DNA of 64,000 nucleotides from Clostridiales bacterium (lineage in GTDB: Bacteria > Bacillota > Clostridia > Oscillospirales > Oscillospiraceae). Position 1 is the stretch's first letter; every line of letters starts with the position of its first letter. Made by a program: the position numbers and the translations under genes. The notes beneath the pieces are model-generated. The model had not been told where the DNA came from. It worked only from the letters and a program-made list of their open reading frames with translations, and made no database searches. Shown piece by piece: positions 15,001-59,111 of this stretch. The stretch covers positions 21,659-85,658 of the forward strand of contig JAJBVG010000083.1 in NCBI GenBank assembly GCA_020859945.1, read 5' to 3'.

Positions 15001-15759
15001 GAGGCTCTCGCAGGAGTCCACCGTGGGAGGCTCGCCGGGGCGGAGCTTGCGGTAGATCTCCAGCATGGCGTCCTCGTAGGTCTTGCAGGTGTCCTTCTCC
15101 AGAGTGGAGACGATGCGCTCGTCCTCGCCAAAGACCTCCAGAATTTCGGCGTCGGTTTTCAGGCCGATGGCCCGCAGCAGGCAGGTGACGGGGATCTTGC
15201 GGTTTTTGTCGATGCGGACGTAAAAGGTGTCGTTCACGTCGGTCTCATACTCCAGCCATGCGCCCCGGTAGGGGATGACGGTGGTGGAATAGATGACGTT
15301 GCCCGCCTTGTCCATGTCCCGGCCATAGTACATGCCGGGGGAACGGGTGATCTGGGAGACGATGACGCGCTCCGCGCCGTTGATGACGAAGGTGGCGCCC
15401 TCGGTCATCAGCGGGAAGTCGCCCATAAAAATTTCCTGCTCTTTGATCTCGTCGGTCTCTCGGTTGCGCAGACGGACATGGACCTTGATGGGGGCGGCAT
15501 AGGTGGCGTCCCGGGCCTTGCACTCCTCCACGTTGTACTTGGGCGGTTCGTTCATGGTGTAGTCCACGAAGGTCAGCTCCAGATTGCCCTGGTAGTCGGT
15601 GATGGCGCCAACGTCCTTAAAAACCTCCCGCAGACCGGTTTCCAGGAACCATTTGTAGCTTTTCTTCTGGATGTCCAGCAGGCTGGGCATGTCGATGATG
15701 GTCCGTTTCCGTTCGAAGCTCCTTCTCAGGGTGTTGCCGAAGTAGACTTCTTTGATCAT
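12013..15759 (-). CDS. rpoB: DNA-directed RNA polymerase subunit beta
   Basis: Start set at the internal ATG ([15 protein letters not shown]...), since the 49 codons upstream in the track ORF run into a repeat element. Conserved RpoB blocks run throughout, for example [10 protein letters not shown]. There is an acidic C-terminal tail. Confidence 0.97.
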
Positions 15760-15788
15760 AGATGAATCACACTCCGATTTCCGTAGAT

Positions 15789-15952
15789 TAGGAATCTCTG
15801 ATGAAATAACTCCCGGCGTCTGGACGGCACATTTCGTGCAACTCTTCGTTGTAAAATCTTGAAATACACAAAGTATTCCTGCGATTTTACGCCTCGATTT
15901 GCGCAAAATCTGCTCGCCCAGCCATCCAGGGTCATTTGCTCAGAGCTTCCTT
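15789..15952 (-). mobile_element. MITE-like 164 bp element, copy 1, with its sense strand on the minus strand, inside the rpoB leader
   Basis: Its reverse complement aligns without gaps to 53047-53210 at 155/164 identities; the central 127 nt have 1 mismatch. The terminal inverted repeats match at about 15/19. Confidence 0.7.
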
Positions 15953-36130: not shown

Positions 36131-36176
36131 CAAAAATGTAACGTTTTTTGCCCAAGACTAAAAAGAGGTATTGCAT

Positions 36177-39170
36177 ATGTTCCAAAAATTCCGTTCTTCG
36201 TTGGCCCTGCTGCTGGTTTGCGCCCTGCTGCTGACCTGTCTCCCTGCCCCCGCTCTGGCGGCGGAACTGGAGGAAGCGCAGACCGCTGCGGCGGAAACTG
36301 TCTCCGACGATACGACAGATACCGCCGGGGAGGAATCCGAGGCCGACGATGTGGAGGACGTTTCCGACCAGGCTGAGCCAGTTGCCGAGAAAGAGGACGC
36401 CTCCGGCCAGGAGGAATCCGAAGCAGCCGCAGAAGAAACCGTCTCCGACCAGGAGGTGGAGGAAAACACGTTTGCGGAGGAAGAAACAGAGCCGTCCTCT
36501 GACGCAGCCGAAGAAGCACCGGAGGAAGACCCGGAGGCTGCGGCGGAGACCACCTGGATTCGGGTCAGCGACCCCACGGAGATCGCCCACCTCATTCGGG
36601 ACAACTGGAGCGATGACTACTTCCAGGAGGCCGTCATAGACACCCGCCGGAACCGGGTCACGGTGGACGGGGAATCCGCCGACCTCGACCAGGTGTTCGA
36701 CGGCGTGACGGAAGCGGACGAGGACGAGCTGTATTCCTCCGCCGCCGCAGTGGAGGCGTATTTTGCGGACACCGCCTATGAGACTGAGGTGCAGTCCGGC
36801 GGAACGGTGTCCGTCACTGCACCCTACCAGACCTGCCGTATCCTTCTGACGGCGGAAACCCTGACCGAGGACTATGGCGCAGAGACGATCCTGGAATACA
36901 GCGCCTATGATGAGTACGTTCTGCAATTCGCCACGGCGGAGGACACCCAGGCCGCCTATGAGCAGCTGGTGGCCCGTTACGGTGTGGAGAACTGCTTTGT
37001 GGATCAGGTCATCACGGCGGACGACCTGTTCCTCTCCGACGGAGAGGATGAGACGACCTCTACTGCCTACTCTTGGGGCACCACTTACATGGGGCTGGAC
37101 ACCCTGAAGGCCGACGCGGACGCGGACGCCGAAACCGTGACGGTGGCCATCATCGACTCGGGCATCGACGCGGACCACGCCTTTTTTGAGGGGCGCACCA
37201 TCACCGGGGACAGCTACGATTTTTTGGCGGGAGCCGATGAGGACCCCACCGAACTCTCTGACCCCTACGGCCACGGGACCCACGTGGCGGGGATCATTGT
37301 GGAGTGTACGCCGGACAACGTGGAACTGATGGTCTTGCGGATTTTGGACGATACCGGCAACAGCACCCTTGCGCTGGTCAAGACCGCCATGCAGTACGCC
37401 CTGGAGCACGGGGCCGACGTGATGAACCTGAGCCTGGGGGTATCCGGCGCCTATACCTACCTGGACAACATCATCCAGACCGTCTATGACGCGGGCATCC
37501 CCGTCTGCTGCGCCGCTGGCAACTACAGAACCGATGTGTGCTACCCCGCCAGCAACGAGCTGACCATCGCCGTCTCTGCCATTGATTCCAGCGGCACCTT
37601 TGCCAAGAGCTACTCCAATTACGGCGAGAAAATCGACTTCTGCGCGCCGGGTACATCGATCGTCAGCGCCCTGGCAGGGGGCGGCACTACCTCCAAATCT
37701 GGCACCTCTATGGCCGCAGCCGCGATGACCGCCGCGATCACCTACGTTATCACTGCCTGCCCTGACGCCACCGTGGAGGAGCTGTACACCGTCCTGCAAA
37801 GTTGCGTCACCGACCTGGGGGACACGGGTAAGGACAAGTATTACGGCTGGGGCTGTGTGGTCAACTTGGCCGGGATGTTTGACCTCTCCAAACTGGAGGT
37901 GACGCTCGAACTCTCTCAGGAGGAGTACACCTATAGCGGCTCCGCCAGGAAACCGACGGTTTCGGTGTTGTGCGGTGGCCTTACTCTGACCCAGGGGACC
38001 GATTATACAGTTTCCTACAGCAACAACACCGCCGTCGGCACTGCCACCGTCACTGTTACCGGCACCGGTGATTACACTGGCACTGCCGAAACAACTTTTA
38101 CCATCGTTGAAACCGACCTCTCTAACTGCACCGTCACGCTGTCTCAGACCACCTGCACCTACAACGGCGCGGCGCAGAAGCCCACTGTCACCGTGAAAAA
38201 CGCGGACGGCGACACCTTGACCCAGGGGACAGATTATACAGTTTCTTACAGCAATAACACTGCCGTCGGCACCGCCACTGTCACTGTTACCGGCACTGGA
38301 AATTACACCGGCTCTGCCACCGCGACCTTCACCATCAAAGCCCTGGCGACCCCGACTCTCTCCAGTGTCTCTAACACCACCTCCGGCGTAAAGGTCACAT
38401 GGAAGGCCGTCACCGGCGCGGCGCAGTACCGGGTGTGCCGCAAAGCCTCTGGCGAGTCCAAGTGGACGCGGATCGGCGTAACCACCTCCACCAGCTATAC
38501 CGACACCACCGCCGTCAGCGGCACCACCTATCAATACACCGTGCGTTGTCTCAGCGCGGACGGCAGCACCTATACCAGCAGCTATAACAGCACCGGGCTG
38601 CGCATCAAATATCTGACCGCAGGCAAGATATCCAGCCTGACCAACACCTCCAAGGGCATCACTGTCAAGTGGAGCAAGGTCAAAGGGGCCAGCGGCTACT
38701 ATGTGTACCGCAAGACCTCCGGCGGCAGCTATAAGAAGATTGCCACTGTGAAAAGCGGTTCCACCGTCAGCTATAGTGATACCGCGGTCAAGAACAAAAA
38801 CGGCACTACCTATGTTTACGCCGTCCGCCCCTATTACGGCAGCACTTTGGGCAGCTACACCGGCAAGACCACTGTTCGCCTGACCGGAGTGTGCATCTCC
38901 AGTCTGAAAAATGTGAAAACCAAAAAGATGACGGTCAAGTGGGGCAAAAACAGCAAGGCCACCGGCTATCAGATCCAGTATTCTACCTCCAGCAGCTTTT
39001 CCAGCTACAAGACTGTGACAGTCACCAGCTACAAGACGGTCAGCAAGACCATTTCCAGCCTGACCAAGGGGAAAAAGTATTATATCCGGGTGCGGGCCTA
39101 TAAGACTGTCTCCGGGACAAAGTATTACTCCGCCTGGAGCAAAACGAAAAACGTGAAAATCTCCAAGTAA
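36177..39170 (+). CDS. Secreted or cell-surface S8 (subtilisin-like) serine protease with Ig-like and FN3-like C-terminal repeats
   Basis: ATG at 36177 after AAAGAGG, then a signal peptide and an acidic region. Catalytic triad motifs IIDSGID, HGTHVAG and GTSMAAA. These are followed by 2 Ig-like and about 4 FN3-like modules. Confidence 0.85.
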   Translation: MFQKFRSSLALLLVCALLLTCLPAPALAAELEEAQTAAAETVSDDTTDTAGEESEADDVEDVSDQAEPVAEKEDASGQEESEAAAEETVSDQEVEENTFAEEETEPSSDAAEEAPEEDPEAAAETTWIRVSDPTEIAHLIRDNWSDDYFQEAVIDTRRNRVTVDGESADLDQVFDGVTEADEDELYSSAAAVEAYFADTAYETEVQSGGTVSVTAPYQTCRILLTAETLTEDYGAETILEYSAYDEYVLQFATAEDTQAAYEQLVARYGVENCFVDQVITADDLFLSDGEDETTSTAYSWGTTYMGLDTLKADADADAETVTVAIIDSGIDADHAFFEGRTITGDSYDFLAGADEDPTELSDPYGHGTHVAGIIVECTPDNVELMVLRILDDTGNSTLALVKTAMQYALEHGADVMNLSLGVSGAYTYLDNIIQTVYDAGIPVCCAAGNYRTDVCYPASNELTIAVSAIDSSGTFAKSYSNYGEKIDFCAPGTSIVSALAGGGTTSKSGTSMAAAAMTAAITYVITACPDATVEELYTVLQSCVTDLGDTGKDKYYGWGCVVNLAGMFDLSKLEVTLELSQEEYTYSGSARKPTVSVLCGGLTLTQGTDYTVSYSNNTAVGTATVTVTGTGDYTGTAETTFTIVETDLSNCTVTLSQTTCTYNGAAQKPTVTVKNADGDTLTQGTDYTVSYSNNTAVGTATVTVTGTGNYTGSATATFTIKALATPTLSSVSNTTSGVKVTWKAVTGAAQYRVCRKASGESKWTRIGVTTSTSYTDTTAVSGTTYQYTVRCLSADGSTYTSSYNSTGLRIKYLTAGKISSLTNTSKGITVKWSKVKGASGYYVYRKTSGGSYKKIATVKSGSTVSYSDTAVKNKNGTTYVYAVRPYYGSTLGSYTGKTTVRLTGVCISSLKNVKTKKMTVKWGKNSKATGYQIQYSTSSSFSSYKTVTVTSYKTVSKTISSLTKGKKYYIRVRAYKTVSGTKYYSAWSKTKNVKISK
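37924..38335 (+). repeat. Tandem duplication of an Ig-like module inside the S8 gene
   Basis: Two units of about 200 bp. The cores at ~37990-38085 and ~38221-38316 are near-identical at the DNA level (LTQGTDYTVSYSNNTAVGTATVTVTGTG). Confidence 0.8.
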
Positions 39171-39298
39171 ACAGCAGAAAAGAACCGCCATGCGCAAGCC
39201 TGGCGGCCCTTTTGCGAGTAAGGGGAGAAAATGGTTGACTTTTGCAGACGTTCTGACTACACTTGAGATAAGAAATTTTTAGAAAGGAAGCAATAAGC

Positions 39299-40750
39299 AT
39301 GAAACACAACTGGAACCGTTTGACTGCGCTGATTTTGGCGCTGTCCATGTGTGTGAGCCTGCTGTCCGCGACGACGTGGGCAGCGGATGTGGAAACGGAA
39401 GCCGCCGTTGACGAGGTCGTGGCCGGGGAGACACTGGAGGCTGAGGAGGAACCGGAGGAGGAATCCGCCGGAGAAACCGAGGAGACCGTACCCGTTGCGG
39501 CTGAAGGACTGGAGGAGGAAGTCACGGTTTCCGCCGCAGAGGAGGAGAACGAGGACACGCAAGTTGACCCTTCTGTGGTTGACCTCTCCACCTATACCGT
39601 CACCGTTGCTGACACCACCTATACCGGCTCCGCACTGACCCCCGCCGTCACGGTCACTGACGAGGAGGGCAACATTCTGACCGGGGACACGGATTACACT
39701 GTCTCTTACAGCGACAACACCGATGCAGGCACCGGCACGGTCATCGTCACCGGCATAGGCAGTTACACCGGCGCCGCCACCGCTGAATTCACCATCGCCA
39801 AGGCCAGCCAGACTGTCACCGCCAGCGTCGGTTCCTCCAGCATCTATGCTGGGAAAACAACTACCATCACTGCCAGCACCACCGGCGACGGCACAATTAC
39901 CTATACCTCGTCCGATACGTCTGTCGCCACTGTCACCAGCGGGGGCAAAGTCACCGGCAAAAAGCCCGGGACGGTGAAAATCACCGTCAAAGCCGCCAGC
40001 AGCGACAATTATAAGTCTGCCAGTAAAACGGTGAAAATCACCGTCAAGCTAAACAAGACCACCATTTCCAGCCTGACCAACACCAGCAAGGGTGTTACCG
40101 TCAAGTGGAGCAAGGTCACTGGAGCCTCCGGTTACTACATCTATCGGAACAACAAGCAGGTAAAGAAAATCACCAGCGGCAGCACTGTCAGCTACACCGA
40201 CACCGGGGCCAAAACCAACGGCGCCAAGTACCAGTACAAGGTCTACGCCTACTATGGCTCTACGAAGAGCGCGGCATCCTCTGTAAAAACCACTTATTAC
40301 GTTTCCGGGGTCAGCCTTTCCAGCCTGAAGAGCAGCGCAGCCAAGAAGATGACCGTCAAGTGGAAGAAAAACGCCAAGGCCAGCGGCTATCAAATTCAAT
40401 ATTCCACCAGCAGCAGTTTCTCCAGCTATAAGACGGCGTCCGTCAGCAAAGCGTCTACCGTCAGCAAGACCATTTCCAGCCTGACCGGTGGAAAGACCTA
40501 TTATGTGCGGGTCCGGGCCTACAAGACCGTCTCCGGCACCAAGTATTACTCAGCCTGGAGCAGCAAAAAGAGTGTGAAAGTGAAGGGAAGCTCCAGTTCA
40601 TCCAGCAGCTCCAGCACAGTGTATATCACAGAAACCGGGACAAAGTACCACCGCGATGGCTGCCGGTATTTGTCAAGCAGCAAAATTTCCATCAGCCGCT
40701 CTAAGGCCATTGCCCAGGGTTACACGGCCTGCTCGGTCTGTGATCCCTGA
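39299..40750 (+). CDS. Cell-surface protein: signal peptide, acidic region, Ig-like/Big_2-like and FN3-like modules, poly-Ser, and a C-terminal Cys/His motif
   Basis: It shares module types with the S8 protein. The last FN3-like module is about 80% identical at the DNA level to 38900-39150. The C-terminus reads YHRDGCRYL...GYTACSVCDP. Confidence 0.8.
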   Translation: MKHNWNRLTALILALSMCVSLLSATTWAADVETEAAVDEVVAGETLEAEEEPEEESAGETEETVPVAAEGLEEEVTVSAAEEENEDTQVDPSVVDLSTYTVTVADTTYTGSALTPAVTVTDEEGNILTGDTDYTVSYSDNTDAGTGTVIVTGIGSYTGAATAEFTIAKASQTVTASVGSSSIYAGKTTTITASTTGDGTITYTSSDTSVATVTSGGKVTGKKPGTVKITVKAASSDNYKSASKTVKITVKLNKTTISSLTNTSKGVTVKWSKVTGASGYYIYRNNKQVKKITSGSTVSYTDTGAKTNGAKYQYKVYAYYGSTKSAASSVKTTYYVSGVSLSSLKSSAAKKMTVKWKKNAKASGYQIQYSTSSSFSSYKTASVSKASTVSKTISSLTGGKTYYVRVRAYKTVSGTKYYSAWSSKKSVKVKGSSSSSSSSSTVYITETGTKYHRDGCRYLSSSKISISRSKAIAQGYTACSVCDP

Positions 40751-43510: not shown

Positions 43511-43635
43511 TGGCTGTGGGTTTGTGTTGTAGTTGCAAATGGGGCTTGAATCAGCCCTATTTTCTGCGGGAAATTCCTCGTCACGCCTTTATGTGGCGGC
43601 GGAGGGGTAATTGCACATTGCACATTTCTAATTGC

Positions 43636-44142
43636 TCATTGTTCCCTGTGCCGCCCGAATCCCAGCAGCCGCCAGAAACCGCCCAGCAGCATGATAATGA
43701 CCAGCGCCACCAGCACGCCGGTCACGCCGCCGCCGAAGTCGATCCACACGTCCCGGACGGAGCCGTTGCGGTTGGCTACGTAGGTTTGCAGGGTTTCATC
43801 CATGTTGGCAACCAGCAGCACCAGAAACAGCGGCCAGCTGATGTGGCGGATGTAGTGCCGGGTGTAGACCCGAAGGCAGAGGGTGAACCAGAAGGCCAGC
43901 AGCGCATATTCCGCGAAGTGGGCCAGCTTGCGCACCACCGCCTCGGTCAAAGACAGCCCAATGGGGGACAGGCAGCGGTTGAGCAGGGCAGTGACCTCCT
44001 GGCTTCGGAGCGAGGAAGCTGCGCCGATTTCCAGAGAGTTGGAAAAGATGAACACCGTGGTGCCGACGGCAAAAAACGTAAAAACCACGCGGAACAGCAG
44101 CAGTAAAAAGCGCGCAAGGGCGGAAGGGCGTGAGCCAGCCAT
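43636..44142 (-). CDS. VanZ family membrane protein
   Basis: 168 aa with 4-5 TM segments and the VRKLAHFAEYALLAF motif. Confidence 0.75.
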   Translation of the reverse strand: MAGSRPSALARFLLLLFRVVFTFFAVGTTVFIFSNSLEIGAASSLRSQEVTALLNRCLSPIGLSLTEAVVRKLAHFAEYALLAFWFTLCLRVYTRHYIRHISWPLFLVLLVANMDETLQTYVANRNGSVRDVWIDFGGGVTGVLVALVIIMLLGGFWRLLGFGRHREQ

Positions 44143-51138: not shown

Positions 51139-51462
51139 ATGGGCGCGCAGCTGCAAAAGATAGCAACCTTTTTGATTGGAGGGGCAAAAACCCTCTGGGG
51201 CTGGGTCGTGTCCCTGGTTATGGGGGCGCACAACACCATCGACCAGTCTATGGTTCTCCACCACGGCGCGTGGGCCTGGGGGGTTCTCGCGGCGGCAATT
51301 TTGGTCGTGGTGGTGTTTGTGCTCCAATTTGTGTGGAAGCCCGTCCCAAAGCCGGATAAGCCCAGAAAAATGGAGGTCAAACCGCGACCCTACCGGCTGC
51401 TGTTGCTGTGTGCCGCGCTGGGTATAGTTTTCCTGGCGGCGTGCTTCGCTGGGATGGATTGA
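51139..51462 (+). CDS. Small membrane protein, hypothetical
   Basis: 107 aa with about 3 hydrophobic segments, downstream of a consensus promoter and a GGGGTGAGG RBS. Confidence 0.5.
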   Translation: MGAQLQKIATFLIGGAKTLWGWVVSLVMGAHNTIDQSMVLHHGAWAWGVLAAAILVVVVFVLQFVWKPVPKPDKPRKMEVKPRPYRLLLLCAALGIVFLAACFAGMD

Positions 51463-51497
51463 ACGCTTGTCCTTCTCCACTTCCTAATACATGTCAA

Positions 51498-51531
51498 AAC
51501 CGCCCAGGCGCTCCGCCTGGACGGTTTTTTG
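51498..51531. terminator. Bidirectional terminator hairpin
   Basis: Stem AACCGCCCAGG/CCTGGACGGTT (1 mismatch) followed by TTTTTT. It lies between convergent genes. Confidence 0.6.
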
Positions 51532-51548
51532 TATCTCTTGATGTTGTC

Positions 51549-52940
51549 TTAAAACTCCGCGTTGCCCACGGTACGGGGGTGGGGCAGCACGTCCCGGATA
51601 TTGGCCACGCCGGTCAAGTACATGACCATCCGCTCGAAACCCAGGCCGAAGCCCGCGTGACGGCAGCCGCCGTAGCGCCGCAGGTCCAGATAATACTTGT
51701 AATCGTCCGGGTTCATGCCCAGCTCATTAATGCGCTGTTCCAGCAGGTCCAGCCGCTCCTCGCGCTGGGAGCCGCCGATGATTTCCCCAATGCCGGGCAC
51801 CAGGCAGTCCGCTGCGGCCACGGTCTTGCCGTCGTCGTTCAGACGCATATAGAAGGCTTTGATCTCCTTGGGATAGTCGGTGACGAACACCGGACGCTTG
51901 AAATGCTCTTCGGTCAGGTAGCGCTCGTGCTCCGTCTGGAGGTCGCAGCCCCAGGTGACGGGGTAGTCGAACTTTTTGCCGGACTTTTGCAGGATGTCCA
52001 CCGCCTCGGTGTAGGTGACCCGGCCAAACTCGGACTCGGCTACGTGGGTCAGCCGGTCTTTCAGCCCCTTGTCCACAAAGCTGTTGAAAAAGTCCATCTC
52101 GTCGGGGCATTTTTCCATAACAAAGCGGATGATATACTTGATCATGGCCTCGGCCAGGTCCATGTCGTCGTTCAGGTCGGCAAAGGCAATCTCCGGCTCG
52201 ATCATCCAGAACTCGGCGGCGTGGCGCTGGGTGTTGGAGTTTTCCGCCCGGAAGGTGGGGCCGAAGGTGTACACGTTGCCGAAGGCCATGGCGAAGTTCT
52301 CACAGTTCAGCTGGCCGGAGACGGTCAGGCTGGTGTGCTTGCCGAAGAAGTCCTTGGACCAGTCCACCTTCCCGTCCGGGGTCTTGGGGACATTTTCCAA
52401 ATCCAGGGTGGTGACGCTGAACATCTCCCCGGCGCCCTCGCAGTCGGAGCCGGTGATGAGGGGCGTGTGGACGTAGACAAACCCCCGGTCCTGGAAGAAG
52501 CAGTGGATGGCGTGGGCGGCTACGCTCCGCACCCGGAAGGTGGCGGAAAAAAGATTCGTGCGGGGCCGCAGGTGCTGGATGGTGCGGAGGTACTCGGTGG
52601 TGTGCCGCTTCTTTTGCAGGGGGTAGTCCGGCGCGGAGGCCCCCTCCACCGTGACAGTGGTGGCTTGCAGTTCAAAGGGCTGCTTGGCGGTGGGGGTCAG
52701 CACCAGCTTGCCCACCACGATGAAGGCCGCGCCCACGTTCTGTCCGGCGACCTCGGTATAGTTTTCCAGGGATTTGTCCAAAATCACCTGAAGGCATTTG
52801 AAGCAGCTGCCGTCGTTCAGGGAGAGGAACCCCAGGTTTTTCATGTTCCGAATCGTTCTGGCCCACCCCGCCACGGTGACGGTCTGGTCGGCAAAGGCAT
52901 CGGAATCCGCGTAAAGCTGTGCAATGGTCGTGCGTTCCAT
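51549..52940 (-). CDS. asnS: Asparagine--tRNA ligase
   Basis: Start at [10 protein letters not shown] after [30 protein letters not shown] is the class IIb AsnRS signature. Confidence 0.93.
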
Positions 52941-53046
52941 ATCAGGAGCCTCCTGTGCGCCGCAGGCGCAAATTTTGATAGTACAATGAAAAAAGTATAG
53001 ACCAATCTCCGGCAAAAAACAAGCCCTTTTGCCGGGAACGTTCCCG

Positions 53047-53210
53047 AAGGAAGCTCTGATTAAATGGCCTTGGATGGCTGGGCGAGCAGATTTTGCGCAA
53101 ATCGAGGCGTAAAATCGCAGGAATACTTTGTGTATTTCAAGATTTTACAACGAAGAGTTGCACGAAATATGCCGTCCAGACGCCGGGAGTTATTTAATCA
53201 GAGGTTCCCT
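53047..53210 (+). mobile_element. MITE-like 164 bp element, copy 2
   Basis: 19 nt terminal inverted repeats AAGGAAGCTCTGATTAAAT and ATTTAATCAGAGGTTCCCT (17/19 complementary). 155/164 identical to the reverse complement of 15789-15952. Confidence 0.7.
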
Positions 53211-53215
53211 AAAAG

Positions 53216-54460
53216 TCAGGCTTTCCACCCGGCCAGGTAGTCCCGCTGCTCGTCGGTCAGCGTGTCGATGGCTAGGCCCATGGCCGCCAGCTTGACCCGG
53301 CCAATTTCGTCGTCGATTTCGGCGGGGACGGGGTAGAGCTTCTTTTCCAGCGTGTCCCGGTGGTTCAGCAGCCACTCCAGGCTCAGGGCCTGAACAGAAA
53401 AGCTCATGTCCATGATCTCCGCCGGGTGGCCGTTGCCCGCCGCCAGGTTCACCAGCCGCCCCTCGCCGATGACGTTCAGCGTGCGCCCGTCGGGGAGGGT
53501 ATAGCCCATGATGTTGTCCCGGCGGAGGGTCTCCTTCACCGCCATGCGCCGGAGGCTGGCCACGTCCACCTCGCAGTCGAAGTGACCGGCGTTGGTCAGC
53601 AGGGCCTGGTCCTTCATCACGGCGAAGTGCCGGGGGGTGATGACATCCTTGCAGCCGGTGACGGTGACGAAGATGTCGCCGTATTTCGCGGCCTCGTCCA
53701 TGGGCATGACCCGGAAACCGTTCATGGTGGCGTCCAGCGCCTTGAAGGGGTCGATTTCCGTGACGATGACGTTGGCGCCCATGCCCTTGGCGCGCATGGC
53801 TACGCCCTTGCCGCACCAGCCGTACCCGGCCACCACCACGGTTTTGCCCGCCACCACCAGGTTGCTGGTGTCCATAATGGCGGTCCACACGGACTGGCCG
53901 GTGCCGTATTTGTTGTCATAGTAGTGCTTGGCCTTGGCGTCGTTCACCGCCATCATCGCGCAGGGCAGCAGTCCCTCCCGCTCACGGGCTTTCAGCCGGT
54001 GGATGCCGGTGGTGGTCTCCTCACAGCCGCCGATGAGACAGTCGGCCAGGTCGGAGCGCCGTCCCCCCAGCAGGTTGATGAGGTCGCCGCCGTCGTCCAC
54101 GATGAGGTGGGGGTGGCAGGACAGGGCCTCCACCAGCAGATTTTCGTATTCTTCCGGCGTGACGCCGTGGATGCCGTAGGTCTCCACGCCCAGGGAGGCC
54201 ACCGCCGCCGCCACGTCGTCCTGGGTGGACAGGGGGTTGCAGCCGGTCAGATGGACCTCCGCGCCGCCCTTGGCCAACACCAGGCCCAGGTTGGCGGTCT
54301 TGGCCTCCAGGTGGACGGAGACGGCGATGCGCAGCCCCCGGAAGGGCTTTTCTTCTTCAAACCGCTTCTCAATGGCGGAGAGGGAGGGCATAAAAGACCG
54401 CACCCACTCGATTTTCCGCAGGCCGGAGGGGGCCAGGGACGGGTCCTTGATGGTACTCAT
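53216..54460 (-). CDS. ahcY: Adenosylhomocysteinase
   Basis: I preferred the ATG at 54460 (MSTIKDP) over the TTG at 54466, on RBS spacing. AhcY blocks include HLEAKTANL and the NAD-binding fold VAGYGWCGKG. Confidence 0.93.
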   Translation of the reverse strand: MSTIKDPSLAPSGLRKIEWVRSFMPSLSAIEKRFEEEKPFRGLRIAVSVHLEAKTANLGLVLAKGGAEVHLTGCNPLSTQDDVAAAVASLGVETYGIHGVTPEEYENLLVEALSCHPHLIVDDGGDLINLLGGRRSDLADCLIGGCEETTTGIHRLKAREREGLLPCAMMAVNDAKAKHYYDNKYGTGQSVWTAIMDTSNLVVAGKTVVVAGYGWCGKGVAMRAKGMGANVIVTEIDPFKALDATMNGFRVMPMDEAAKYGDIFVTVTGCKDVITPRHFAVMKDQALLTNAGHFDCEVDVASLRRMAVKETLRRDNIMGYTLPDGRTLNVIGEGRLVNLAAGNGHPAEIMDMSFSVQALSLEWLLNHRDTLEKKLYPVPAEIDDEIGRVKLAAMGLAIDTLTDEQRDYLAGWKA

Positions 54461-54523
54461 ATGCAAACGTTCCTTTCATGAAACAGAACATGGTTATCCC
54501 TTTGAATCGGCTGCGTTGTGACG

Positions 54524-54692
54524 AGCTATTAGCCGTTAGCTGTTAGCCATTAGTCAGGTACTACCAATTCAAAGAGAACAGCGCTAAACATCAGTTAGTT
54601 GTTAGCGGTTTGTTTTGTGTGGCGAACCCAAAGCGTAGAACGAATTGTTAAGCACTGCAAAGCTAATAGCTAAAAGCCAAGAGCTAACAGCT
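54524..54692 (+). repeat. TTAGC-heptad palindromic element A (169 nt)
   Basis: 39 nt left arm AGCTATTAGCCGTTAGCTGTTAGCCATTAGTCAGGTACT. 42 nt right arm AGCACTGCAAAGCTAATAGCTAAAAGCCAAGAGCTAACAGCT. The arms are largely complementary. The 88 nt centre is unique to this copy. Confidence 0.85.
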
Positions 54693-54872
54693 AAAATGCA
54701 CAAATGTCTGAGCAAACGGGACAACCAGAAAACAAATTTAGTTCGCCGGATATTGTATCACAGATTTCGACCCGCTGCAATCGCAAAACCCGCATTTTCC
54801 CGAATGTTCCGGCGGGATGGGGCGGGGAACCGGTCAAAAAAGGGCTTTTGCGCAAAAATTCACAAATAGCGC

Positions 54873-54901
54873 TGGACTTTCCTGCTCATCCGGGCTACAA
54901 T
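54873..54901 (+). promoter_or_regulatory. Candidate promoter of the rhomboid-like gene
   Basis: TGGACT, a 17 nt spacer, then TACAAT. A perfect palindrome TTTTGCGCAAAA lies 15 nt upstream (54846-54857). Confidence 0.4.
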
Positions 54902-54947
54902 ATGCGTTGTGAACATCCAAAACCGAACCTTTTGTGGAGGGGATCTC

Positions 54948-55826
54948 TTGAGAAAAATCAGCGCGGCGGTGGACCGCTTTTGTTACAATCACCCCAATTT
55001 CGGTATTCCCAACCTGATGTTGGTGGTCATCGTGGGCAACATCATCGTCTACGTGATGGATCTGCTCAGCAGCTACACCTTTTCCAGTGTGCTGGCCTTC
55101 ATCCCGGCGGCCATTTTTCAGGGGCAGATTTGGCGGCTGATTTCCTTTGTGTTTGTGCCGGAAAGCTCGTCCAACGTGATCGTCTTTGCCATCACACTGT
55201 ATTTTTACTACTTCATCGGCACCCAGTTGGAGAAATACTGGGGCACCGCCCGTTTCAACGTGTTCTACTTCGCCGGGGTGCTGCTGTCCATCCTCACCGG
55301 GTTCATCATCGCCGCGTTTAATGGCGGCATCCACTGCCCCTATGAGACGGCCAGCATCTACTATGTGAACATGTCCCTGTTCTTCTCCTTCGCCACCCTG
55401 TACCCGGATATGCGGGTACTGCTGTTCTATATCATCCCCATCAAAGTGAAATATCTGGCCTGGTTGGACGCGGCGCTGTTCGCCATTCAAATCATCCGCT
55501 ATTGTCTGGCTGGGATGTTCGTCTATGCGTTGCTGCCTGTCATCGCCCTGCTGAACTACTTCATTTTCTTCGGAGCCGACCTGATGGGAGCCGCCCGGCG
55601 CACCACCCGGCGGGTACAGCACCAGACCAGTTCCCAGACCATCCACTTCAAAAAAGCCGCCAAAGAGACCCAGCAGCACAAGGGCTACCTGCACAAGTGC
55701 TGCGTGTGTGGCCGCACTGACCAGGATTATCCCGATTTGGAGTTCCGTTACTGCTCCCGGTGCGCGGGCTACCGCTGCTACTGCATCGACCACATCAATA
55801 ACCACGTCCATGTGACAGAGGACTGA
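54948..55826 (+). CDS. Rhomboid-superfamily membrane protein lacking the canonical GxSG and His motifs, with a C-terminal Cys/His zinc-ribbon-like tail
   Basis: TTG at 54948 preceded by GGAGGGG (an alternative GTG at 54909 has no RBS). GQIWRLISFVFVP resembles rhomboid TM2. The tail reads CCVCGR..YCSRCAGYRCYCIDHINNHVH. Confidence 0.65.
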   Translation: MRKISAAVDRFCYNHPNFGIPNLMLVVIVGNIIVYVMDLLSSYTFSSVLAFIPAAIFQGQIWRLISFVFVPESSSNVIVFAITLYFYYFIGTQLEKYWGTARFNVFYFAGVLLSILTGFIIAAFNGGIHCPYETASIYYVNMSLFFSFATLYPDMRVLLFYIIPIKVKYLAWLDAALFAIQIIRYCLAGMFVYALLPVIALLNYFIFFGADLMGAARRTTRRVQHQTSSQTIHFKKAAKETQQHKGYLHKCCVCGRTDQDYPDLEFRYCSRCAGYRCYCIDHINNHVHVTED

Positions 55827-55833
55827 AATCAGC

Positions 55834-55986
55834 AGCTATTAGCTGTTAGCCGTTAGCTGTTAGCTAGGTACTGCATACCACGTGCGAGTTGCAGGAAAAA
55901 TGGGGACGATTAGCCGCTGGTTATGAACCACGAACCATTTGTCTAGCACTGCCAAGCTAACAGCCAAAAGCTAGTAGCTAACAGCT
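55834..55986 (+). repeat. TTAGC-heptad palindromic element B (153 nt)
   Basis: Arms of the same length and orientation as element A (33/39 and 36/42 identical). The 72 nt centre is unrelated. It starts 8 nt after the upstream stop and ends 3 nt before the next RBS. Confidence 0.85.
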
Positions 55987-56005
55987 CATTTAGGAGGCAA
56001 TTCAA

Positions 56006-56581
56006 ATGAAAAAGTTATCAGGCAAAGAACTGGGCGCCAAGCTGGTCGGCAAGGCCAAAGACGCCCTCTCCGACACCGTCAAGCGGTCCGAGCTGATGGC
56101 GCTGAACCGCCAGATGGACAAAGTGACCCCCGTCATGGAGGAGTTGGAGCTGCTGATGGACGAATATCAGGTCTGCGACCAGAAGCTCCAGGAGCTGAAC
56201 GACCAACTGGAGCATCCCTCTCCGGCGGCGCGGCTGCCCATCGTGGCCCAGCTGACCCGTCAGCCCGACCCGGCAGAGCTGAAAAGCCAAATCGCCGCCT
56301 ACCGCACCATGCGGGCGGGGGTAGAAGGCCATATGCTCCAGCTGGTGCGTCTCCAGTGCAAGGACTTCACCTTCCTGGGCAGCTACCTGTACCCCGTGGC
56401 GGTGGGCGAGATCAGCCGTTGCTTGGAGGACGGTGCGGCAGAGGACCTGCACACCGCCATCGGTCTCTACGAGGACCAGCTGGAGCGCTGGCGGGAGACG
56501 GGCAGCGAGGGCGAACGGCTCCGCAAGGCCCAGTGGCAGGCGGAGTATATGGCCAAGCTGCTGAAAACCATCAACGAATAA
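56006..56581 (+). CDS. Hypothetical coiled-coil protein
   Basis: 191 aa with TAGGAGG upstream. Heptad-like Leu/Glu/Gln-rich sequence, no motif I recognise. Confidence 0.55.
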   Translation: MKKLSGKELGAKLVGKAKDALSDTVKRSELMALNRQMDKVTPVMEELELLMDEYQVCDQKLQELNDQLEHPSPAARLPIVAQLTRQPDPAELKSQIAAYRTMRAGVEGHMLQLVRLQCKDFTFLGSYLYPVAVGEISRCLEDGAAEDLHTAIGLYEDQLERWRETGSEGERLRKAQWQAEYMAKLLKTINE

Positions 56582-56589
56582 CGTGTGTT

Positions 56590-56626
56590 TCCCCCGCGGC
56601 GGTTCCCCCGTTGCGGGGGATTTTTC
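56590..56626 (+). terminator. Intrinsic terminator
   Basis: Stem TCCCCCGC/GCGGGGGA followed by TTTTT. Confidence 0.65.
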
Positions 56627-56796
56627 CTGCCCTGCCTGTTTGCGACAAAAACAGGGCGATTTTCCCACGTATTTTTCAAAAACGGCCTATTTACAAGGGG
56701 GAAACACCGTGTTATCCTTAACGTAAAGAACAGATAAACTGCCGTGGAAGGTTTTCCCGGCGAAATCATACAGACCGGACAGAGAGGGATAAGACC

Positions 56797-58179
56797 ATGG
56801 CGATTCATGAGGAATGTGGCGTTTTTGGCGTGTACGACCCCCAGGGGGACTGCGCCCGCACCACCTATTATGGGCTGTACGCCCTGCAACACCGGGGCCA
56901 GGAGGCATGCGGCATCGCCGCCAACAACAACCGGAACATCACCTATGAAAAGGACATCGGCCTGGTGGGGGATGTGTTCGACGAGGAGACCCTGGACCGG
57001 CTGGGCGGGACCATGGCGGTGGGCCATGTCCGCTACGCCACCACCGGCGAGGGGATGCGGGAGAACGCCCAGCCCCTGGTGCTGAAATACGTCAAACAGC
57101 AGCTGGCGGTGGTCCACAACGGCAACCTGGTGAACACCGAAGAACTGCGGGACTACTTCGAACACAAGGGGGCCATCTTTCAGACCACCAGCGACACGGA
57201 GATCATCGCCTACTCTATCGCCCGAGAGCGGCTGCACTGCGGCAGTATCGAGGAGGCGGTGAAGCAGTCCATGCCCTTCCTAAAGGGGGCCTTCTCTATC
57301 ATCGTCATGTCCCCCCAGAAGCTCATCGCCGCCCGTGACCCCTGGGGCTTCCGCCCCCTGTGCATTGGCCGGAAGGGAAACGCCATTTTCTTCTCCTCCG
57401 AGTCCTGCGCCCTGGACAGCGTTCAGGCCGAGTACGTCCGGGAGGTGGAGCCAGGGGAAATCGTGGTGGTGCAGAACGGACAAATTCGCTCCATCCGGGA
57501 CAACTGCTCCAACAAGAGCCATATGTGCATTTTCGAGTATATCTACTTCGCCCGGCCTGACAGCACCATCTGCGGCCAGTCGGTTCACCTGGCCCGGCGG
57601 AACGCCGGACGGCTGCTGGCCCGCCAGCATCCGGTAGAGGCGGATCTGGTCTTTGGCGTGCCGGACTCCGGGCTGGACGCCGCCATGGGTTTCGCGGAAG
57701 AGTCCGGCATCCCCTACGGCGAGGGCTTCGTCAAGAACCGCTATATTGGCCGCACCTTCATCACCCCCGACCAGCAGAGCCGGGAGGCGGCGGTGCGCAT
57801 CAAGCTGGGCGCCCTGCGCAGCCAGGTCCAGGGCAAGCGGGTGGTGATGATCGACGACTCCATCGTCCGGGGCACCACCTCCAAGGCCATCGTCAAGCTG
57901 CTGCGGGAGGCCGGGGCCACCGAAGTCCACGTGCGTATCTCCGCGCCGGAGTTCATCGCCCCCTGCTATTTCGGCACCGACGTGCCGGACAAGACCCGTC
58001 TCATCTCCTGCCACTACAACGTGGAGCAGGTGCGGGACATCATCGGCGCGGACAGCCTGGGCTTTTTGGGCCTGGACCGGCTGGAGGACATCGCCCCCGA
58101 CGCGGACTGCGGCTTCTGCAAGGGGTGCTTCACCGACGAGTATCCCATCGACATGAGCCGTTATCGCCCGGAAGGGTAA
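56797..58179 (+). CDS. purF: Amidophosphoribosyltransferase
   Basis: MAIHEECGVFGV (N-terminal nucleophile Cys context) and the PRTase motif VVMIDDSIVRGTT. Confidence 0.95.
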   Translation: MAIHEECGVFGVYDPQGDCARTTYYGLYALQHRGQEACGIAANNNRNITYEKDIGLVGDVFDEETLDRLGGTMAVGHVRYATTGEGMRENAQPLVLKYVKQQLAVVHNGNLVNTEELRDYFEHKGAIFQTTSDTEIIAYSIARERLHCGSIEEAVKQSMPFLKGAFSIIVMSPQKLIAARDPWGFRPLCIGRKGNAIFFSSESCALDSVQAEYVREVEPGEIVVVQNGQIRSIRDNCSNKSHMCIFEYIYFARPDSTICGQSVHLARRNAGRLLARQHPVEADLVFGVPDSGLDAAMGFAEESGIPYGEGFVKNRYIGRTFITPDQQSREAAVRIKLGALRSQVQGKRVVMIDDSIVRGTTSKAIVKLLREAGATEVHVRISAPEFIAPCYFGTDVPDKTRLISCHYNVEQVRDIIGADSLGFLGLDRLEDIAPDADCGFCKGCFTDEYPIDMSRYRPEG

Positions 58180-58358
58180 AACGGGAACGAAACAGTTCCT
58201 TTTCATTTGGAGCAAAGCGTTTTCCGATTACGAACTATCATCCCATATTTGACCACCCCCTTGCCTCCCCTGAAAGGGGAGGAGGGCCGCCGCCGCAGGC
58301 GGTGGCGGAGGGGTTTCACGCCGAAGCGAAGGAAAAGGAATCAGTAGACACGACATCA

Positions 58359-58392
58359 GGCCGCCGGACGCATCCCCGGCGGCCCGTTTTTG
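58359..58392 (+). terminator. Intrinsic terminator of purF
   Basis: Stem GGCCGCCGG/CCGGCGGCC followed by CGTTTTTGT. Confidence 0.7.
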
Positions 58393-58553
58393 TCTTTCCC
58401 GCACTTTGTCAAGTGGTCAAGGCGCAAAAAATAGCTAAATTGGGCGCGCCAATTTTTTGTGAACTTTTCACGGCAAAAAACGCCTTGAAATTTGTTTTTC
58501 GCTGTGGTAGGATACTTTCTGCAAAAAACAAACTTGTGCGTATAATGGTTCAG

Positions 58554-58586
58554 CGCAAAATCTTCCGGAGATTTTGCGCTTTTTTA
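58554..58586 (+). promoter_or_regulatory. Perfect 11 bp inverted repeat with a T-run, immediately after a TATAAT box (operator or attenuator/terminator)
   Basis: GCGCAAAATCT-tccgg-AGATTTTGCGC followed by TTTTTT. TATAAT lies at 58541-58546, and the site is 31 nt upstream of the DUF2798 start. Confidence 0.5.
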
Positions 58587-58616
58587 TGCGCCAAATGCCG
58601 AAAAGGAGCGGTTCTT

Positions 58617-59111
58617 ATGAAATTCATCACCAACCTTCCCCACAACAAGCGTGAGTTTGCGCTGTTTATGGCTGTGATCTCGATTATTTCCGTCAATATC
58701 ATCGCGCCGCTGATCACCTGCTTCGAGTTCGGGTTCCATCTGTACGTCTGGGCGGACGTGCTGACGGTGATCCCCTTTATCTGGCTCAGTGTTATTGCCC
58801 TGGTGCTGTTGACCTACCGGCCCGCGGAGTGGATGACCGCCAAAATCGTAGACAAAGATGACAGCTTCAACGCCCATATCCTGACCAACATCCTCTGCAC
58901 TGTGTTCCTGATGTCCATTTTCCTCACCGTCATTGGCACCTGGATCGGCAGCCGCAGCATCACCCTCGAGCCGATTCAGAAGTTTTTCTACAAGTGGCCC
59001 CGGAACTTTGCCCTGTCCTTCGCCGTGGAGCTGCTCATCGCCCAGCCCATCGCCCGACAGGTGATGAAGCACCTCCACCTGCACCAGGAGGGGCAGGCCA
59101 GCTTCGGCTGA
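58617..59111 (+). CDS. DUF2798-like membrane protein
   Basis: ATG after AAAAGGAG. 164 aa with 4 TM segments in two similar halves. Confidence 0.5.
   Translation: MKFITNLPHNKREFALFMAVISIISVNIIAPLITCFEFGFHLYVWADVLTVIPFIWLSVIALVLLTYRPAEWMTAKIVDKDDSFNAHILTNILCTVFLMSIFLTVIGTWIGSRSITLEPIQKFFYKWPRNFALSFAVELLIAQPIARQVMKHLHLHQEGQASFG

Follow-up and report, generated by a model that had tools for sequence, protein, structure and literature searches.

A palindromic element with heptad arms between a rhomboid gene and its downstream neighbour in a Clostridiales genome, and its likeness to rRNA intervening sequences

Background

The 23S rRNA intervening sequence (IVS) of Coxiella is a 428-nt element regarded as 'selfish', with an open reading frame (ORF) for the protein S23p, a 28-bp terminal stem and 2-3 tandem heptameric repeats (PMC4990558). 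RNase III cuts this IVS at the start of the first heptameric repeat, and a mobile origin has been proposed for it but never shown (PMC4990558). S23p gives its name to the 23S rRNA-intervening sequence protein family PF05635, a family of four-helix bundles, and the S23p of Xanthomonas has been reported as a homopentameric toroid (PMC4990558). Here we report on element B, a palindromic element whose arms are also built of heptads and which lies between two protein genes in a 64-kb stretch of a Clostridiales genome (contig JAJBVG010000083.1). This whole stretch is called the window below, and the loci compared with it are labelled with L and a number.

Heptameric repeats occur in bacterial intergenic DNA in an excess that is unexplained, and the described cases include the cyanobacterial STRR repeats, GGGAATC of Xanthomonas and TAACTGA of Beggiatoaceae (PMC4692102, PMC4679880). 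The TAACTGA heptads have been proposed as protein-binding sites (PMC4679880). We found no further paper linking S23p with heptameric repeats besides PMC4990558, and no published account of TTAGCTG or TAACAGC arrays. The literature that we searched appears not to describe the rule that emerges below, namely that inverted heptad arrays with TAG facing inward bracket PF05635 genes and also occur empty. To our knowledge, no link with PF05635 cassettes has been described for the STRR, GGGAATC or TAACTGA repeats.

Small intergenic palindromic repeats are common, and they are poorly understood outside Proteobacteria. REP, BIME and REPIN elements are known stabilisers of the upstream mRNA, and in phage T7 imperfect RNase III processing hairpins stand between consecutive cistrons of the polycistronic transcript of the early genes. 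A preliminary description of the window had likened the position of B to that of REP/BIME-type elements and had proposed selection on its stem. Our analysis suggests another reading, which we consider somewhat probable, that B is a cargo-less palindromic element of the IVS type tolerated in the operon spacer of a rhomboid gene and a 191-aa gene.

Anatomy of the element and its sister copy

Element B and its sister copy, element A, have the following parts.

55834-55986, element B, 153 bases, palindromic and heptad-armed
55834-55872, left arm of B: AGCTA, four TTAGCYR heptads and the inner boundary AGGTACT
55873-55944, centre of B, 72 nt: one further TTAGCCG unit and small local hairpins, no ORF
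55945-55986, right arm of B: the inner boundary AGCACTGCC, the inverted heptads GCTAACA, GCCAAAA, GCTAGTA and GCTAACA, and GCT
54524-54692, element A, with its left arm at 54524-54562 and its right arm at 54651-54692

Both elements follow one arm plan: the left arm is built of TTAGCYG heptads and the right arm of their inverted form, CRGCTAA. The period of 7 is found by TRF with 4.6 copies per arm, and a repeat finder recovers the inverted arms of B at 55834-55874 and 55946-55986 (41 nt, 78% complementary, 71 nt apart). Our own count reproduced the limits of B given in the preliminary description, the arm lengths of 39 and 42 nt, and the 33/39 and 36/42 identities between the arms of A and B. 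The differences had been said to fall mostly on the two variable heptad positions, and all 12 of them are indeed confined to heptad positions 6 and 7 and the inner boundary. It had also been stated that the centre of B is unrelated to that of A apart from a TTAGCCG unit. This is mostly so, yet CGAACC and TTGT..AGCACTGC align in MAFFT as well as the TTAGC unit, the rest of the alignment being partial. The boundary AGGTACT, which is not a heptad, is common to both elements.

The pattern TTAGCYGTTAGC, allowing at most one mismatch, has 10 matches in the window where 0.24 would be expected, and every one lies in A or B. Because 7 is not a multiple of 3, TAG on the plus strand and TAA on the minus strand recur in every frame; the left arm of B carries TAG in all three plus-strand frames, and A and B alike have stops in all six frames. 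In the Rfam scans of B (gathering and E-value thresholds) the sole match was a chance one to a plant miRNA, with 15.7 bits against a threshold of 75.

An insertion into a conserved spacer

The genes and signals around the two elements are listed below.

53216-54460, minus strand, ahcY
54873-54901, plus strand, promoter-like site of the rhomboid gene, TGGACT-17-TACAAT, conserved in orthologous loci and downstream of A
54948-55826, plus strand, rhomboid-family membrane protein gene of 292 aa, between A and B, with its stop codon TGA at 55824-55826, 7 nt before B
55992-55997, plus strand, Shine-Dalgarno sequence AGGAGG, starting 5 nt past the end of B
56006-56581, plus strand, downstream gene of 191 aa, with its ATG at 56006-56008
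56797-58179, plus strand, purF

B is wedged between a stop codon and a ribosome-binding site (RBS), as had been noted before, though the distances given then (8 and 3 nt) need correction to 7 and 5 nt. In relatives whose rhomboid proteins are 64-77% identical to this one, the order of ahcY, the rhomboid gene and a gene of 186-191 aa is kept, and the products of the downstream genes are orthologues (48% identity, E 1e-38). The spacer between the rhomboid gene and the next gene measures 179 nt here versus 4 nt in L127 and 53 nt in L139 and L142, and the spacer between ahcY and the rhomboid gene measures 487 nt versus 159-245 nt in the relatives. No TTAGC or GCTAA arrays were found at the orthologous loci of the relatives. 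Comparison of these loci indicates that A and B are lineage-specific insertions. Both elements are 100% identical across six public contigs, all of one strain.

Element A lies in the divergent spacer of ahcY and the rhomboid gene. It is outside the rhomboid mRNA because the conserved promoter-like site is downstream of it. B is presumed to lie inside a bicistronic transcript of the rhomboid and 191-aa genes. We also considered B as an intrinsic terminator and rejected this: it has no U-run, CAUUUAGGAGG comes after B, and a terminator scan gave no match at B.

A dispersed family and a wider class

Another Clostridiales metagenome-assembled genome (MAG), L029, has an element that aligns with element A over 178 nt, through the centre, at 69.7% identity. 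This element has an unrelated gene on one side and an ABC-transporter ATPase gene on the other, and the ATG follows 20 nt after its end. A third copy, L018, is 85% identical to A over 60 nt and starts directly after a stop codon. The family is dispersed, because homologous elements occupy non-homologous sites and are absent from orthologous ones, and the identification of B as the second copy of a dispersed palindromic element is upheld. A metagenome scan with the family pattern TTAGCYRTTNGYYAGGTACTRY gave 6 chance matches in low-GC contigs and no new copies of the A/B family.

We scanned one genome per species for the wider class with TTAGCYGTTAGCYGTTAGC (TTAGCYG x2.7) and obtained at least 120 stretches, where by our own rough estimate fewer than 20 would arise by chance. 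The matched phyla include Acidobacteriota, Gemmatimonadota, Bacteroidota, Chloroflexota, Desulfobacterota, Planctomycetota, Cyanobacteria and Actinomycetota as well as Clostridia. Among the matches listed, 49 TTAGC arrays have a GCTAA array after them within 400 nt and the reverse order is seen twice, with 94 solo arrays. The gene calls around the arrays are rough, made by a greedy longest-ORF heuristic; by these calls none of the ~150 arrays or pairs among the matches listed lies inside a long ORF, and 45 paired elements divide into 24 between co-directional, 13 between divergent and 8 between convergent genes. On the TTAGC-reading strand the arrays tend to adjoin a stop codon, and on the GCTAA-reading strand a start codon. 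Solo arrays between co-directional genes show no sense/antisense bias (19 vs 22).

In viral contigs we found 41 stretches of TTAGCYG, 43 of the shuffled unit ATTGCYG and 14 of the shuffled unit TAGTCYG. The idea that TTAGCYG is a uniquely favoured heptad was rejected, ATTGCYG being as frequent in these contigs. TTAGC...GCTAA pairs number 39 there versus 9 in the reverse order, the latter being mostly neighbouring elements, and the control heptads form 1-2 pairs. The special trait of TTAGC arrays is their inverted pairing, not the choice of heptad.

MAGs of Gemmatimonadaceae have a TTAGC-armed sub-family of their own, with a conserved GCGTCGAGCAACGGCG-type centre that occurs in both orientations.

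L083, 2581-2658, 3858-3928 and 7698-7780, three Gemmatimonadaceae elements in 8 kb
L107, 2333-2411 and 3623-3702, two further elements of this sub-family

A short degenerate intergenic array of another heptad, ATTGCAC, lies at 43610-43641 of the window with 4.6 copies.

PF05635 cassettes with heptad flanks

Small ORFs lie between heptad arms at several loci, and Pfam assigns them to PF05635 (E 1e-30 to 1e-41). Such cassettes are usually found in operon spacers: between nrdD and trxB, between murD and murG, in a liv operon and after groES.

L021: permease stop codon, (TTAGCTG)5, ORF, (GCTAANN)8, 4 nt, ATG of the next cistron, in a liv-type operon
L143-L152: nrdD, (TTAGCNN)3-4, ORF, (NNGCTAA)4, AAGGAG, ATG of trxB
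Loci orthologous to the nrdD-trxB cassette: other heptads, e.g. CAGTGAC
Cassette of murD, ORF and murG: AGCTTTN arms
Cassette locus of Bacteroidales: TTAGTTG arms
PF05635 genes with inverted heptad arrays: L143-L161, L260, L262, L263-L284, L021, L067 and L074

A search that started from the protein gave 22 viral-contig loci (~15 distinct) with inverted heptad arrays around the ORF, the units being lineage-specific. We compared the flanks of 20 distinct PF05635 loci with those of 120 shifted controls. The median period-7 score (out of 28) is 19 upstream and 18 downstream of the PF05635 genes versus 11 in the controls, and flanks that are inverted repeats of each other (17 or more matches of 21) occur at 13/20 loci versus 3/120 controls. 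All three flank criteria are satisfied together at 7/20 loci versus 0/120 controls. The polarity of the flanks is that of B, with TAG exceeding CTA upstream (51 vs 9) and CTA exceeding TAG downstream (44 vs 17). One related cassette has identical arms in ten assemblies. The longer relatives with such ends carry PF05635, which is not a known transposase.

L074 was considered as a cassette nested in a cassette, which would be evidence of mobility, and this was rejected since L143, set beside it, reveals that part of the sequence is tandemly duplicated at the nrdD-trxB locus. The duplication, on the minus strand at ~2900-3750 of L074, takes in the nrdD spacer, an arm and the 5' part of the PF05635 gene, with a GAAGCG microhomology at the junction. 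In L263, L264 and L266 (~1300-2000) a PF05635 cassette seems to lie inside a frame that resembles a PglX-type methyltransferase of BREX. Protein-like sequence is found on both sides of the cassette at these three loci (...SYAVGCMFGRYSLD... and ...DNVIPI...), which suggests a split gene.

A 28-copy series in phage-like contigs

In two phage-like IMG/VR contigs almost all of the spacers between small co-directional genes contain a heptad-armed hairpin, which makes 28 distinct copies. The layout is a stop codon, (TTAGCTN)4-5, TTTG, GCGCGCnnnnGCGCGC, AAGTAACTTAA, (GCTAANA)4-5, (A)GGAGG and ATG, the stop codon often being the TAG of the first heptad, and B is placed exactly as these copies are. The series begins right after a Cro/CI-like pair of helix-turn-helix genes. 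A blastn search of the GenBank phage collection with B and a phage-like contig gave no match.

L181, 8350-11000, and L166, L183, L193, L197, L199 and L200: loci of the 28-copy family, with a GCGCGC mini-hairpin centre

Position 7 of the heptads forms a Watson-Crick pair in 7 of 94 in-register cells versus 35% expected (P = 4e-10), and 93% of the cells hold a mismatch or wobble, with 27 G.T, 20 A.C, 17 T.T and 10 A.A pairs. The stems are hence series of 6-bp helices parted by a mismatch or wobble, the arms being TTAGCTG versus TTAGCTA. Whether an element is of the G.T or the A.C type tracks the orientation of its asymmetric centre and not the direction of the flanking genes (5 vs 5). The two arms, a TG arm and a TA arm, therefore differ by descent. 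The asymmetry is a polarity of the DNA element and does not point to selection on one RNA strand; taking G-U versus A-C as a mark of the transcribed strand was rejected, as the element's own orientation explains it.

Folding and selection on the stem

The predicted fold of B has -60.0 kcal/mol (z -4.1) on the plus strand and -63.4 (z -4.7) on the minus strand, and that of A has -49.5 kcal/mol (z -2.55) and -56.7 (z -4.76), respectively. The 39 nested positions of the B stem comprise 30 Watson-Crick pairs, 3 G-U pairs and 6 unpaired positions, with 3 wobble-compatible mismatches per strand.

An alternative hypothesis could be that selection maintains B as a cis-acting RNA hairpin, comparable with REP/BIME, that stabilises the upstream cistron, attenuates read-through or sets the ratio of the proteins. 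B lies in operon mRNA between stop codon and RBS and its fold is very stable, as this hypothesis would have it, and hairpins so placed are found in almost all spacers of the two phage-like contigs, where useless DNA would be costly. Selection on the stem had been argued in the preliminary description from pair 26, said to be A-T in A and G-C in B. These pairs are as described (A-U and G-C in the RNA, with G-U in L029) and the compensatory change is real. It carries no weight, being no more than chance provides, because pairing and double changes match what shuffling and base composition lead one to expect.

The control for covariation consisted of 500 shuffles of the partners among the arms of A, B and L029. 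Standard pairs fill 81.2% of the cells versus 80.7% after shuffling, and 246 of the 500 shuffles score as high. Pairs changed on both sides number 2 versus 1.7 expected (306 of 500 shuffles), and 12 pairs depart through unpaired cells alone. The pairing collapses when the partner columns are slid by 1-2 positions, which shows only the complementarity of the invariant heptad cores. In 50 paired elements the variable heptad positions pair as composition predicts, with Watson-Crick pairs in 38% of the cells at position 7 versus 39% expected, and a looser pairing test of the paired elements gave 0.624 versus 0.555-0.593. No covariation thus appeared with the third homologous copy or across the 50 elements, and the claim of selection on the stem is not borne out.

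Other results also speak against a selected hairpin. In the 28-copy family it is the element's orientation, not transcription, that governs the G-U/A-C asymmetry, copy A is outside the rhomboid transcript, and 13/45 elements lie between divergent and 8/45 between convergent genes by the rough gene calls. The relatives do without the element, and the lack of a U-run means that B is not an intrinsic terminator. We consider a selected function of this kind unlikely.

A proposed reading: a tolerated insertion

The reading that we lean towards, B as a cargo-less IVS-type palindrome tolerated in the spacer of the rhomboid and 191-aa genes, is carried by the observed anatomy, insertion, dispersal and polarity of the element and by the observed link with PF05635 cassettes. 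Since the same TAG-inward arms bracket PF05635 genes, B is best seen as an ORF-less relative of the IVS type that resides in mRNA and not in rRNA. Derivation of B from a cassette is hypothetical, because only the heptads are shared and the window has no PF05635 gene.

The element would have entered the short spacer of a conserved two-gene operon in this lineage alone, coming to lie between the stop codon and the Shine-Dalgarno sequence. We take the insertion to be tolerated rather than needed because the relatives lack B. It can be tolerated since it interrupts no frame, has stops in all six frames and keeps the downstream RBS intact, the Shine-Dalgarno sequence and the ATG of the 191-aa gene being left free. 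Once transcribed, the ~40-bp imperfect stem might be cut by RNase III like the stems of IVSs, or might block exonucleases. Either event would uncouple the two cistrons, which are tightly coupled in the relatives, into separate or differently stable RNA segments. It is by analogy that we infer such RNase III processing or an effect of B on mRNA stability. On balance the host is probably little affected, which makes B selfish or near-neutral DNA. For annotation, the architecture offers a simple signature of insertions that split operon spacers without harm to the genes.

A number of points weigh against this reading. Only 2 copies are seen within the 64 kb. Inspection by eye revealed no target-site duplication next to A, B, L018 or L029. 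An exact empty site was not found either, the relatives' spacers being too diverged to define one. No transposase was found, so mobility is judged from the distribution alone. A tblastn search found no PF05635 gene in the window, and A and B have no homology to a PF05635 cassette beyond the heptads. Other heptads are as common as TTAGCYG, and part of the similarity across phyla could be convergent growth of simple repeats. The near-regular hairpins in the spacers of phage operons could reflect a selected function and not selfish DNA. Finally, RNase III cleavage of B is pure analogy, and a mismatch or wobble every ~7 bp might prevent it. The window has no rRNA either.

A possible family of cassettes

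We speculate, and tentatively, that a single family of selfish cassettes, pan-bacterial and also carried by phages, has the heptad-armed hairpins as its termini. Its full-length form would carry PF05635, the IVSs would be copies that landed in rRNA, and elements such as A and B would be derivatives without cargo, spread over operon spacers. Translation coming from either side would be halted by the inward-facing TAG heptads, and RNase III would cut the stem-bearing element out of, or apart from, the host transcripts, so that the insertion would be harmless. The pentameric PF05635 protein, which we take to be a relative of Avd, a factor of diversity-generating retroelements, might bind the heptad arrays.

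Such a family, if it exists, would also account for a large part of the heptameric-repeat excess in bacterial intergenic DNA. The locus leads to one architecture, inverted heptad arrays that bear stop codons, have a fixed polarity and are either empty or loaded with a PF05635 gene, and this architecture touches three questions that have long been open: the heptanucleotide excess, the origin of rRNA IVSs and the role of the very widespread PF05635 proteins.

Other explanations

The arms could instead be arrays of DNA or RNA binding sites, one heptad per subunit of an oligomeric protein, for which the pentameric PF05635 protein or another repeat-binding regulator is a candidate; A and B would then mark the rhomboid gene for regulation or recombination. 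A strictly conserved 5-nt core beside 2 variable positions, the unit number of 4-5 and the fixed polarity would suit such an array. So would the co-occurrence of heptad arrays with PF05635 genes, the heptad differing by lineage, together with the toroid of five S23p subunits in Xanthomonas (PMC4990558) and the protein-binding proposal for the Beggiatoaceae TAACTGA heptads (PMC4679880). Against it, no binding protein is known, the 64-kb window is devoid of a PF05635 gene, nothing ties A and B to a common regulon, and the 7-bp spacing would put successive sites on different faces of duplex DNA. We think this quite unlikely.

It is more improbable still that B arose in place by slippage expansion of a heptad and inverted duplication through template switching, with neither function nor mobility, its likeness to A being due to convergence or local gene conversion. 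The general abundance of heptameric repeats, the control heptads as frequent as TTAGCYG in viral contigs and the 94 solo arrays at genome loci would fit such an origin. However, A and B share AGGTACT, TTGT..AGCACTGC and CGAACC, none of them heptads, and the homology between A and the L029 copy, which occupies an unrelated locus in another species, runs through the centre. Random template switching would not be expected to give a polarity of 49 to 2, arrays of the control heptads are rarely paired, and no copy-number variation is seen among 6 and 10 independent assemblies, the 6 being one strain.

That A and B are attC-like recombination sites with the rhomboid gene as a mobile cassette between them was rejected on orientation and synteny and can be set aside as extremely improbable: a single gene does lie between two imperfect palindromes, the bottom strand has a slightly better fold and GTTAGC resembles the attC core GTTRRRY, but the core orientation is reversed (both strands have GTTAGC at the 5' side), every core deviates from the consensus, the rhomboid gene is syntenic and chromosomal with the same neighbours in relatives without the elements, and no integrase is found among the six flanking genes scanned against Pfam (51408-59111), the rest of the window not having been searched for one.

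Other repeats in the window

A second, unrelated dispersed repeat has two inverted 162-nt copies at 15791-15952 and 53047-53208 that are 96% identical (155/162). Its ends are CTCTGATTAAAT...ATTTAATCAGAG, which gives it the look of a miniature inverted-repeat transposable element (MITE). One copy lies upstream of the minus-strand ORF at 12013-15906 and the other just downstream of ahcY. At 36268-40600 there are long families of direct repeats (123-181 nt, 65-85% identical) inside the ORFs 36171-39170 and 39299-40750, which look like repeated domains of surface proteins.

Comparison with known systems

B is placed like a REP/BIME element or a T7-type intercistronic hairpin, and it is a heptameric array with an obligatory inverted partner. 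REP, BIME and REPIN elements are, like B, extragenic, imperfectly palindromic and dispersed, and often lie between co-transcribed genes; a REPIN has two inverted units around a spacer and a similar overall size. A REP unit, however, is a 20-40 nt imperfect palindrome led by a GTAG-type motif, whereas the arms of B are tandem heptads without a GTAG-led unit. A REP family comes with a cognate RAYT (Y1 transposase) gene and tens to hundreds of copies in the genome; no RAYT is known here, and 2 copies lie in the 64 kb analysed. REPs are also species-specific, whereas arm sequences of the B type occur across phyla, and the class of B, unlike REP/BIME, is found in promoter (divergent) spacers too. 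The REP/BIME-like intercistronic position proposed in the preliminary description stands, with a layout that recurs in dozens of copies elsewhere, and membership of B in REP/BIME fails for want of the GTAG-led unit, the IVS-type hairpins being closer relatives. As for MITEs, in which terminal inverted repeats go with a target-site duplication, B has inverted arms, and no direct repeat was seen at the flanks of A, B, L029 or L018.

The layout of the T7 early genes is met again, with heptad-armed hairpins, in the two phage-like contigs. The T7 sites differ in being neither heptad arrays nor dispersed repeats, and RNase III cleavage at the heptad hairpins would be by analogy with them.

The STRR, GGGAATC and TAACTGA repeats are tandem 7-nt intergenic units as in B (PMC4692102, PMC4679880). 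Intergenic heptad repeats have, like B, stops in all frames and often lie just upstream of start codons. Inverted pairs have been noted for the Xanthomonas GGGAATC repeats, and the function of the three kinds is unknown (PMC4692102, PMC4679880). B differs from them in its unit (TTAGCYG), in its obligatory inverted pairing and in its fixed polarity around a centre.

The IVSs of Coxiella, Leptospira and Salmonella reside in helix 25 or 45 of 23S rRNA, whereas B resides in an mRNA spacer between protein genes, and no sequence homology joins the two beyond the heptad architecture. Cutting of the stem by RNase III has been shown for Coxiella only (PMC4990558) and would apply to B by analogy. The likenesses lie in the architecture. 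IVSs are insertions of 100-450 nt with terminal inverted repeats and a long stem, and B is likewise a stem around a variable centre. That of Coxiella has tandem heptameric repeats next to its stem, and the arms of B consist of heptads. ORF-less forms of IVSs exist, and B has no ORF. IVSs are regarded as selfish and possibly once mobile, and the IVS-type PF05635 genes in our sample stand between inverted heptad arrays with the same polarity as the arms of B.

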